A stretch of DNA of 27,567 nt from a virus. Lineage: Duplodnaviria; Heunggongvirae; Uroviricota; Caudoviricetes. The stretch lies in the IMG/VR virus record IMGVR_UViG_2695420708_000004, one strand, 5' to 3'. This document shows positions 24,901 to 27,567 of the stretch, piece after piece. The position numbers were made by a program. The first letter of the stretch is position 1; each line of letters starts with the position of its first letter.

Positions 24901-27567
24901 AGGAAACTGGACGACTGCACAGTTTATCGAGTGGCTGGATTCTCAGGGAGCATTTAACCATCCATACTGGATGTGCAAGGGTTCCTGGTCTTATGGCAAT
25001 AATAAAATCATTACTGATACTGGCTGCGGTAATATTCATCTCGCCGGAGCTGTCATTGAAGTAATGGGGATAAAGTCAGCGATGACGATCCGCATTACCA
25101 CTCCGACCACATCCAGCGGTGGCGGAACAACCAACGCCCAGTTTACCTATATTAATCACGGAACAGATTATTCACCTGGCTGGCGAAGGGACTATAACTC
25201 CAGAAATAAGCCAACGGCATCAGAGATCGGGGCGCTACCGTCAGGTGGAACAGCAGTATCATCAGTTAATCTGGCTTCAAAAGGTCGGGTAGCCGCGCTG
25301 ACAGACAATACGCAGGGGGCAGCAGGTCTTGAGTTATACGAGGTGTATAACAACGGATATCCAACAGCGTATGGAAATATCATTCACCTGAAAGGGATGA
25401 CAGCCGTTGGCGAAGGTGAGTTACTCATCGGCTGGAGTGGTACAAGCGGTGCTCATGCTCCGGCATTTATTCGTTCACGACGGGATACGACCGACGCAAA
25501 CTGGTCGCCGTGGGCGCAGCTTTACACCTCGGCTCATCCTCCTGCAGAGTTTTATCCAGTCGGTGCACCAATCCCGTGGCCATCAGATACCGTTCCGTCT
25601 GGTTATGCCCTGATGCAGGGGCAGACTTTTGACAAATCTGCTTACCCGAAACTTGCAGCCGCTTATCCGTCAGGCGTGATCCCTGATATGCGTGGCTGGA
25701 CGATTAAGGGCAAGCCCGCCAGTGGTCGTGCCGTATTGTCTCAGGAACAGGATGGCATTAAATCGCACACCCACAGCGCCAGCGCATCCAGTACGGATTT
25801 GGGGACGAAAACCACATCGTCGTTTGATTACGGCACTAAATCCACGAATAACACCGGGGCGCATACGCACAGTCTGAGCGGCTCTACAAGTTCAGCTGGG
25901 GCCCACCAACATAGTCAGACTGGGCCCAGAACGAATAGCGGGAGTCAACCTACTGGAATGTTTCCGGCAGGGAGTACTCAAGTTAGCGGGACTAATCAGG
26001 TTGGTATCAGTGGCTCATTAACCAGTGGCACCTCCCAATGGGTAGGTAAATCATCTTCAGAAGGAAACCATACACACTCACTGTCCGGCACAGCAGCATC
26101 TGCGGGTGCACACGCGCATACTGTCGGTATTGGTGCTCATACGCACTCTGTTGCGATTGGTTCACATGGACACACCATCACCGTTAACGCTGCTGGTAAC
26201 GCGGAAAACACCGTCAAAAACATCGCATTTAACTATATTGTGAGGCTCGCATAATGGCATTCAGAATGAGTGAACAAGCACGGACCATAAAAATTTATAA
26301 CCTGCTGGCCGGAACTAATGAATTTATTGGTGAAGGTGACGCATATATTCCGCCTCATACAGGTCTGCCTGCAAACATCGTGGCATCTCGTTGAAGATCA
26401 TCGGGGTAAAACGGTTTATGACGTGGCTTCCGGCGACGCGTTATTTATTTCTGAACTCGGCTCATTACCGGAAAATGTCACCTGGTTATCCCCGGAAGGG
26501 GAGTTTCAGAAGTGGAACGGCACAGCCTGGGTGAAGGATACGGAAGCAGAAAAACTGTTCCGGATCCGGGAGGCGGAAGAAACAAAAAACAGCCTGATGC
26601 AGGTAGCCAGTGAGCATATAGCGCCGCTTCAGGATGCTGTGGATCTGGAGATCGCAACGGAGAAAGAAACCTTGTTGCTGGAAGCCTGGAAAAAGTATCG
26701 GGTGTTGCTGAACCGTGTTGATACATCAACTGCACCGGATATTGAATGGCCAGTAGCACCTATAGGGTAAATTCGTAATGATTACCTAAATACGTTATTC
26801 TTTTGTTAAAAAAGTGATTTTGCTATAGGTAGGGAGTATGTTCTTGGATTAAGAATAAAAAATCGCCATGAAAGAGCTTCATGGCGAGTACATAAACGTA
26901 CAAAATGTGATGAAAGTAGAGTGGCGTAAGCCACTATATTAAGATATGACAATAGCGAAGAAAAGTAAATAACATTTTATGGACGTTTAATTGTTAATTA
27001 TAAAAACTAGAGTGCCCGATATTGTTTATCTTGCTTTAAAATAATGTACTCAAACCAAATTTTTGAGCTAAAAGCTCAAATAATATAAATGCAATAATAA
27101 TGTTTAATAAGACAATTAGCTTGCTTTGTATTTTCATTTCGGAATACTGTTAAGTAACTTTGATGACCCTAACAATAGATCGGAATTTTCTTAGAGTCAA
27201 TGGTCACTGTTTTTGCTTGCAAAGCAAATGTTTTGGTGGTTATAAGTTGTCTTAATATAGTCACGCATGCAACTTGTTCCATGCGGAGATTAAAGATTGG
27301 AATATAACGCGAAGATGGAATTAAATTACATTTGCAATAATGAATTTATTATTACTCAATAATTACCGATATTATTATTGTAAATTAATCATTAGAGTGC
27401 AAAAAGAAATGTAACGGCAAAATAAGAGGACGATAGCTGAGAAAAAAGCGTGCTTTCCCAATCTGGGGCAAATCACGTCTGAATGACACCTGAAAACAGG
27501 TGGTAGCCTCAAGAAGGCTGGTGATGCTGCCAACTTACTGATTTAGTGTATGATGGTGTTTTTGAGG

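Follow-up and report, generated by a model that had tools for sequence, protein, structure and literature searches.

The window analysed here is a stretch of 27,567 nucleotides from a Caudoviricetes virus (IMG/VR record IMGVR_UViG_2695420708_000004), numbered 5′ to 3′ on one strand. Near its right end, about 750 bp of AT-rich DNA (26771–27519) separate the gene tfa from an IS1 element. This seemingly empty stretch is ordinary phage accessory DNA that has been shortened by IS1. The new element in it is an unannotated, widespread, phage-borne relative of the known small membrane protein YncL, encoded by a 33-codon open reading frame (ORF) in a cassette designated M1 (Table 1); the rest of the region is ordinary, being variable accessory DNA from the tail-fibre end of a defective lambdoid prophage.

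Phage origin and modular anatomy of the stretch

The AT-richness described in the original prediction, which had been made from the sequence alone, is borne out by a GC content of 0.28–0.30 (300-nt windows, 26800–27399), against 0.46–0.65 in stf and tfa. Likewise, neither strand of 26771–27519 contains an ORF of at least 60 amino acids (aa), the longest being 52 aa (27375–27533, minus strand, extending into IS1) and 48 aa, and the right limit of the stretch is indeed the start of IS1 at 27520.

The stretch is phage DNA, not host DNA: deposited phage genomes carry it, and contigs that retain an intact attP have it between tfa and attP/int. Phages mEp332, PhiR70_1 and ev099 carry all 749 bp between tfa and the att/int end of the genome. 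Contigs L043 and L089, which have the un-recombined attP form, place the AT-rich region before the arm, the core and the integrase; the region thus corresponds to the b region of phage lambda, as the accessory DNA that separates tfa from attP in a lambdoid phage lineage which at first integrated at the serU tRNA gene. The original prediction had also considered host DNA disrupted by IS1. The adjoining IS1 element speaks for this origin, or for a piece of a larger known gene interrupted in the same way, but the same sequence is found in packaged phage genomes and beside attP/int, a plasmid search with the stretch gave no match, and the IS1-free relatives continue as non-coding phage DNA; the probability of such an origin is practically negligible.

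Matches to the stretch were found in the chromosomes of 1,343 of the 5,426 complete E. coli genomes. All 749 bp are present at an identity of at least 99% in 280 of these genomes, while roughly 950 contain the first 578 bp only (about 96% identity) and a smaller group the first 546 bp (about 94%); many other genomes contain the last 85 bp only, and a query without this last module still matches 1,121 genomes. Carriers of the M1 cassette comprise about 1,100 E. coli genomes, 47 IMG/VR contigs and three deposited phage genomes. In every case examined, the stretch lies directly 3′ of tfa of a lambdoid prophage. The carrier prophages are located at bio/ybhB (L001, L007, L008 and L010), ydfJ (L002 and L011) and serU/yodB (L073); the L009 prophage bears an attachment-site (att) relic of the ttcA type, and L003, next to uspF/ompN, holds the last 85-bp module alone. 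The prophage at bio in strain REL606, examined as a well-studied carrier, proved unrelated. Under the match, the NCBI annotation pipeline (PGAP) has placed no feature in more than 1,000 E. coli genomes.

The limits of the modules were drawn by comparison with L011 and L002. M1 is missing as a block in L011, where the linker (attcgtaatgattacctaaa) runs straight into M2, and M1–M3 are all missing in phage SerU-LTIIb. The density of variable sites peaks in M2 (25%). The conserved end segment 27435–27519 is the left part of a 213-bp module that many other prophages have beside their att sites. The cargo on the right differs completely between relatives (an AraC/YdeO-like regulator, the sitABCD operon or the gene of a 65-aa hypothetical protein), with fossil att sites or relic tfa 3′ ends standing between it and the region. 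‘Empty’ AT-rich spacers 3′ of tail-fibre genes are thus stacked modules and fossil attachment sites.

M1 qualifies as a phage moron in that it is an extra unit between otherwise adjacent sequences, has a deviant GC content and its own terminator, and is oriented opposite to the late operon. The moron was reportedly defined for lambdoid phages by Hendrix and colleagues, with lom and bor of phage lambda as examples. The presence or absence of M1 as a unit is seen in the linker–M2 junction of L011, and its GC content is 0.30 (0.31 in M2 and 0.26 in M3), against 0.48 in tfa. Its terminator is strong, while its promoter is only a consensus match of 9/12 that is not enriched over shuffled sequences. 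Like lom and bor, M1 stands between sequences that are adjacent in related phages, differs from them in base composition, ends in its own terminator and belongs to a variable region 3′ of the tail-fibre genes. Unlike those morons, it has a cargo of merely 33 codons, missed by all annotation pipelines, and its promoter is a candidate.

Table 1. Features between the end of tfa and the left end of IS1 (positions in the window).
Feature	Position	Strand	Description
Linker	26771–26790		20 bp after the tfa stop codon, common to all variants including those without the cassette
M1 cassette (moron)	26791–27220	-	About 430 bp; promoter candidate, small ORF, 3′ untranslated region and terminator
Intrinsic terminator	26863–26887	-	11-bp stem, 3-nt loop, tail TTTTTTATTC; T-run 26862–26857
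3′ untranslated region	26893–26989	-	16-bp inverted repeat (26893–26908 with 26972–26989) and GUGGC/GCCAC hairpin
YncL-like ORF	27036–27137	-	33 codons, unannotated; predicted single-pass membrane peptide
Promoter candidate	27172–27200	-	−35 TTGACT, spacer 17 nt, −10 TATTGT after C; consensus scan, 9/12
M2	27221–27348		AT-rich spacer, no conserved ORF; 85% identity with L011 and L002
M3	27349–27434		AT-rich spacer, no conserved ORF; full-length type only
Conserved end segment	27435–27519	-	Just outside the P arm of the serU-type attP; cut by IS1
IS1 left end	27520–27567	+	Marks an IS1-mediated adjacent deletion of about 550 bp

The YncL-related ORF

The product of the ORF (MKIQSKLIVLLNIIIAFILFELLAQKFGLSTLF) matches the NCBIfam family YncL (NF000537) with an E-value of 1.3e-5 and a score of 25 bits, residues 1–28 being aligned with positions 1–28 of the 30-position profile. 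A BLASTP comparison with YncL of E. coli K-12 (MNVSSRTVVLINFFAAVGLFTLISMRFGWFI) gave an E-value of 2e-7, with 11 identical and 18 positive residues in an ungapped alignment of 28 residues starting at Met1. None of 5000 composition-preserving shuffles matched the score of 60 (mean 20, sd 4, maximum 44); the similarity is therefore more than that of two hydrophobic peptides looking alike. The ORF and YncL have in common M1, S5, [RK]6, V9, L10, N12, A16, L19 and F20, as well as L22, [RK]26, F27 and G28. The best 18-residue hydropathy windows are residues 7–24 of the ORF (2.87) and 8–25 of YncL (2.31). The original prediction stood to fall with a database match to a known gene, and this has come true in part, with one small ORF of the stretch matching a known protein family.

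YncL is a 31-aa stress-response protein of the inner membrane in E. coli, Citrobacter and Salmonella. It resembles the ORF product in length (33 against 31 aa) and in the presence and place of one hydrophobic helix, and the yncL gene of Salmonella likewise lies on a short, apparently monocistronic unit. The ORF product, however, is 39% identical to YncL over the 28 aligned residues, with a score under the family cut-off, ends in LSTLF instead of WFI or WFA and has an acidic residue (E21) in the helix; its expression and activity are predicted only. In addition, the ORF is part of a phage moron, whereas yncL belongs to the chromosomal patD-yncL-ortT locus. A Shine-Dalgarno sequence (AAAGGTGG) is conserved in chromosomal yncL of E. 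coli and 11 Citrobacter species; the ORF has neither this signal nor the chromosomal context. As a short hydrophobic peptide from a mobile element, with a relative (YncL) that depolarises the membrane when produced, the ORF product also resembles type I toxins and other small depolarising membrane peptides (Hok, TisB and YohP), but Rfam and signal scans identified no antisense or divergent antitoxin RNA for it.

The exact peptide was found only twice, without a name, in a collection of 15 billion proteins, and a search of 1.84 billion representative proteins returned only the ORF itself and one frameshifted copy. Searches of PHROGs and Pfam with the ORF gave no match. When species genomes, IMG/VR and metagenomes were scanned with degenerate codons, the only matches were to chromosomal yncL and the same prophage allele. 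A search of the literature for small membrane proteins that phages encode beside tfa likewise yielded nothing relevant.

The conservation of the ORF was assessed in 42 distinct haplotypes from E. coli genomes, phages and IMG/VR contigs, 38 of which span the first 541 bp and were used for the variability estimates. Variable sites number 7 of 102 in the ORF (6.9%), whereas they make up 19% of the aligned region outside it (Fisher p = 0.0019) and 17% of M1 outside it (p = 0.010). Of the seven changes, two (I18V and A24D) replace an amino acid and five are synonymous, where a proportion of 0.29 would be expected from the transition bias seen in the data (binomial p = 0.023). An unbroken frame is present in four DNA lineages, at about 80 loci, and the probability that a random frame with a GC content of 29% stays open over 32 codons is about 0.07. 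The terminator is the only part similarly constrained, with 2 of 25 positions variable in the 38 haplotypes. The 90 bp between the tfa stop codon and the terminator are the least constrained (30% variable) and have diverged strongly in L075 and L076, where the ORF is unchanged. Among the explanations offered in the original prediction, a decayed moron comes nearest: the moron part stands, but the decay apparently does not, since the YncL-related ORF is intact and conserved.

We lean, on balance, towards the reading of M1 as a self-contained leftward moron that encodes a YncL-related 33-aa peptide in the accessory region between tfa and attP. Several observations weigh against it. The score of 25 bits is below the curated NCBI cut-off of 35 for NF000537, which explains the silence of PGAP across the stretch and means that the ORF is not a YncL equivalog and would be at most a divergent paralogue. 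Searches of 185,579 species genomes, IMG/VR and JGI metagenomes found no intermediate members of the family. With seven variable sites in the ORF and low diversity, the selection tests are modest. One metagenome contig (P0018) has a frameshifted copy, and another (L081) a mutated start codon. No Shine-Dalgarno sequence precedes the ATG (..cagtattccgaaATG). Finally, promoter-like matches at the 9/12 level are no commoner than in shuffled sequences (6 found, 4.7 expected), and the −35 element is weakened to TTAACT in the sit-linked lineage.

The missing Shine-Dalgarno sequence, the weak promoter consensus, the blank PGAP annotation in more than 1,000 genomes and the occasional broken copies also favour an alternative in which the stretch is an inert AT-rich spacer between tfa and attP, possibly bound by H-NS. 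The ORF would then be a silent relic of a captured gene and the terminator an insulator of the tail genes against leftward read-through from int/pL; phage SerU-LTIIb and the L011 prophage, which manage without the cassette, point in the same direction. However, a relic with 39% amino-acid identity and a GC content of 29% should contain stop codons or frameshifts, while the frame, the length and the start have been kept, and no other part of the cassette varies less than the ORF, whose changes are mainly synonymous. The inert spacer deserves serious attention but is unlikely. Were the ORF to prove unexpressed, the region would be an ordinary spacer.

The remark in the original prediction that the short peptides of the region lack ribosome-binding sites is true, but it overlooked the conserved 33-aa ORF on the other strand. 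The 35-aa peptide that it gave as an example (27200–27307, plus strand) gains non-synonymous changes and spans a module junction, and is not a gene. The other small ORFs of the region were rejected as genes as well: they have non-synonymous or stop changes, some have lost their start codons, and a comparison of all 12 small ORFs other than the YncL-like one with NCBIfam gave no match. The 37-aa and 55-aa ‘hypothetical proteins’ of PhiR70_1 and ev099 belong to the same group of non-conserved small ORFs.

Terminator, RNA folding and the possible role of the peptide

The minus-strand terminator noted in the original prediction is well supported. Its fold has an energy of −15.2 kcal/mol (z = −4.85), and none of 200 shuffled sequences folded as well. 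It could, in principle, end a long 3′ tail of leftward operons lying to the right, such as sitABCD, or of read-through from int/pL; a leftward transcript from beyond the window had been proposed in similar terms. The sit operon of L009 is directed leftward into the region, as is int in the attP form. Against this, the cargo varies wholly (a rightward AraC regulator, leftward sit genes, the 65-aa hypothetical) while the cassette is constant, fossil att sites stand between cargo and cassette, and the cassette is gained and lost as a unit with its terminator. A transcript from outside is not needed, the terminator being part of the 430-bp cassette, and such a tail is very unlikely.

The minus-strand segment 26990–26855 (136 nt), which ends in the terminator, is predicted to fold at −34.6 kcal/mol (z = −6.4) into the 16-bp helix, the GUGGC hairpin and the terminator, and a perfect TATAAT (27002–26997) lies 7 nt upstream of the start of the helix. 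This strong fold, the U6 tail of the terminator and the TATAAT would suit a function at the RNA level, that is, a small RNA (sRNA) from 26990–26855, possibly starting from this TATAAT, or a type I toxin–antitoxin system with an antisense RNA. The hydrophobicity of the peptide would suit the latter, as would the depolarisation of membranes by its relative YncL when produced (PMC12542507); Salmonella yncL was itself originally listed as an sRNA (PMC5437024). However, the plus strand of the same segment folds as well (z = −5.8), so that the signal is that of a DNA inverted repeat and not of a strand-specific RNA, and the 16-bp helix is missing from the minimum-energy fold of the whole predicted mRNA. 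A comparison of 14 distinct sequences revealed no compensatory changes; pair-breaking changes affect six pairs (8 cells), against four wobble-preserving ones, which is about the level of chance. The structured segment is also more variable (12.8%) than the ORF, and a search of Rfam 15 over 26000–27567 at E-values up to 1 returned only IS009, within the tfa coding sequence. A signal scan and our own reading found no convincing pair of antisense promoter and terminator on the plus strand. The sRNA locus suggested in the original prediction thus finds no support, and an RNA-level function, as an sRNA or a type I toxin–antitoxin system, is quite improbable.

A conserved RNA structure in 26855–26990 was considered as a feature in its own right and rejected, as its strong fold is strand-neutral and without covariation. 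Two palindromes mentioned in the original prediction are located where it had placed them, but find no support as functional hairpins: that at 27062–27080 falls within the 33-codon ORF and is broken by G27067T in one lineage, and that at 27213–27227 is placed on a module junction.

As a moron encoding a YncL-related peptide, M1 would be transcribed leftward, opposite to the late operon, into a monocistronic mRNA, about 300 nt long, with its presumed start at about 27165 and its end at 26863. The order of the unit would be the promoter candidate, a leader of about 27 nt without a Shine-Dalgarno sequence, the ORF, a 3′ untranslated region of about 150 nt and the terminator, which would also shield tfa and stf against antisense transcription from the att/int side. 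By analogy with YncL and YohP, the lysogen would produce the 33-aa peptide, which would become inserted in the inner membrane. According to published data, E. coli expresses yncL more strongly in minimal medium and upon heat shock, the protein is described as stationary-phase- and stress-induced, and its production leads to membrane depolarisation, nucleoid condensation and reduced viability (PMC12542507). YncL is cleaved in vivo by RseP (PMC10470546), and the Salmonella yncL gene lies on a short σS-dependent transcript initially catalogued as sRNA STnc1110 (PMC5437024). When abundant, the phage peptide might similarly dissipate part of the membrane potential and produce a low-metabolism, stress-tolerant cell, or a poor host for incoming phage. 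It is a rather doubtful, bolder possibility that the peptide is a membrane-depolarising effector, a stress peptide of the YncL type that temperate phages have captured and deploy in about one fifth of E. coli strains, tuning lysogen dormancy and stress tolerance or blocking superinfection by abortive infection or exclusion, and perhaps restrained by RNA; such restraint might come from the structured 3′ region or from an unrecognised antisense RNA.

YncL and YohP belong to an emerging class of small membrane proteins, for most of which no function is known. The cassette is present in roughly 20–25% of complete E. coli genomes and in inducible lambdoid phages, yet has been left unannotated by the NCBI pipeline in the genomes examined. 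A phage-borne YncL paralogue, if real, would mean that temperate phages traffic in small membrane proteins, and the comparison of lysogens with non-lysogens would offer a natural gain-of-function setting for such peptides.

Attachment-site remnants, IS1 and neighbouring rearrangements

In the IS1-free relatives (L001, mEp332, PhiR70_1 and ev099), the sequence runs on for 130 bp and then enters a 3′ fragment of the serU tRNA-Ser gene, which reads from the anticodon loop to CCA and corresponds to a tRNA-Ser pseudogene in the annotation of SerU-LTIIb. A prophage inserted at serU, beside yodB, in L073 has this sequence as its true right end. L001 (6001–7199) and L073 are 99% identical, including 285 bp of host DNA past the tRNA, which indicates that phages now using the lambda attB carry a fossil serU-type attR with a captured piece of chromosome. 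This fossil attR is located at L001 6862–7199, with equivalents in L004–L006; mEp332, PhiR70_1 and ev099 have it together with lambda-type att/int. The 285 bp of chromosome that follow stem from the serU–yodB spacer of E. coli. This arrangement is evidence of an ancient imprecise excision that has since become fixed in these phages.

To the right of the AT-rich region, L043 and L089 have first an arm that bears TTGGAATAT motifs, then the tRNA-Ser-like core and the P′ arm, which contains CTTGGAATAT three times, and finally a leftward gene for a 341-aa tyrosine integrase (Pfam Phage_integrase). The IS1 junction of the window lies exactly at the outermost arm-type motif (aaggct|tggaatatt). It is identical in L007 and L008, and L010 has the same right junction with a larger left deletion. 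IS1 has no target-site duplication, and together these features bear the signature of an IS1-mediated adjacent deletion, in the window of about 550 bp, which removed the arm, the tRNA-like core and the captured host DNA. IS1 adjacent deletions can in this way wipe out the evidence of module and att history. A further copy of the arm-type motif (gaTTGGAATATaa) occurs in M2 at 27292–27305, 220 bp left of the outermost arm site; it may be a chance occurrence, since it is not conserved in the L002/L011 lineage.

The conserved end segment 27435–27519 has, in the sense of a leftward int transcript, a U6 run and three small hairpins; the hairpin before the U6 run is imperfect and the fold weak (z = −1.5). 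Relatives without IS1 continue from the segment through arm, tRNA-Ser-like core and P′ arm to the leftward integrase. The sib/tI region of phage lambda serves in retroregulation of int. The segment resembles sib/tI in its position just beyond the outermost P-arm site, about 300 nt downstream of the int stop codon, and in ending in a hairpin and U6 on the int-sense strand; a position outside the P arm and downstream of int was found in L089, L043 and the IS1-free L001. The likeness is one of position, the hairpin is weak, and int and attP are gone from the window, so that 27435–27519 is at best a putative sib/tI counterpart, fossil in the window.

Other attachment-site relics were noted in relatives. 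A ttcA-type (Rac-site) relic lies between the AT-rich region and sitABCD in L009 (about 4560–4680), and in L003 two such relics (4860–4950 and 5210–5292) flank a serU-type arm in a prophage carrying nleG. RefSeq lists one ttcA-type relic as a ‘capsid protein’ of 55 aa, apparently in error. Relic tfa 3′ ends recur rightward in relatives, for example in L011 (about 4145–4240 and 4895–4995).

The genes to the right of the region include, in L001 (7506–8249), an AT-rich gene for a 247-aa AraC-family regulator nearest to YdeO/GadX (NCBIfam E-value 1.9e-43, below the cut-off). It lies right of the region in the full-length type and about 200 bp past IS1 in L007 and L008; it is a probable regulatory moron and may be located just outside this window. 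In prophages at the ydfJ site, M2 is followed by the gene of the 65-aa hypothetical protein (L002 6820–7017; L011 4371–4568, minus strand), whose sole family hint is a weak match to GlgS (E = 0.037).

To the left, tfa (26254–26770) lacks 65 internal nucleotides (nt 125–187 of the 582-nt gene) that all close relatives have; the resulting frameshift makes tfa a pseudogene in the window, and the deletion was found in none of the complete E. coli genomes of the collection. The IS009 match in tfa (RF02111; 218 bits at 26532–26730) lies wholly inside the coding sequence; since relics of the same tfa 3′ end recur in relatives, this ‘RNA family’ may simply be a conserved, recombination-prone coding segment. 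Further upstream, an ORF at 20159–22519 joins the N-terminal 39 aa of Lom to about 750 aa from the C-terminal end of the tail-tip protein J; here, 20274–22062 duplicates 17864–19652 of the full-length J gene with 98.3% identity. The following copy of lom (22590–23072) is C-terminally truncated (160 against 199 aa). This combination of duplication and truncation indicates a rearranged and defective tail region.

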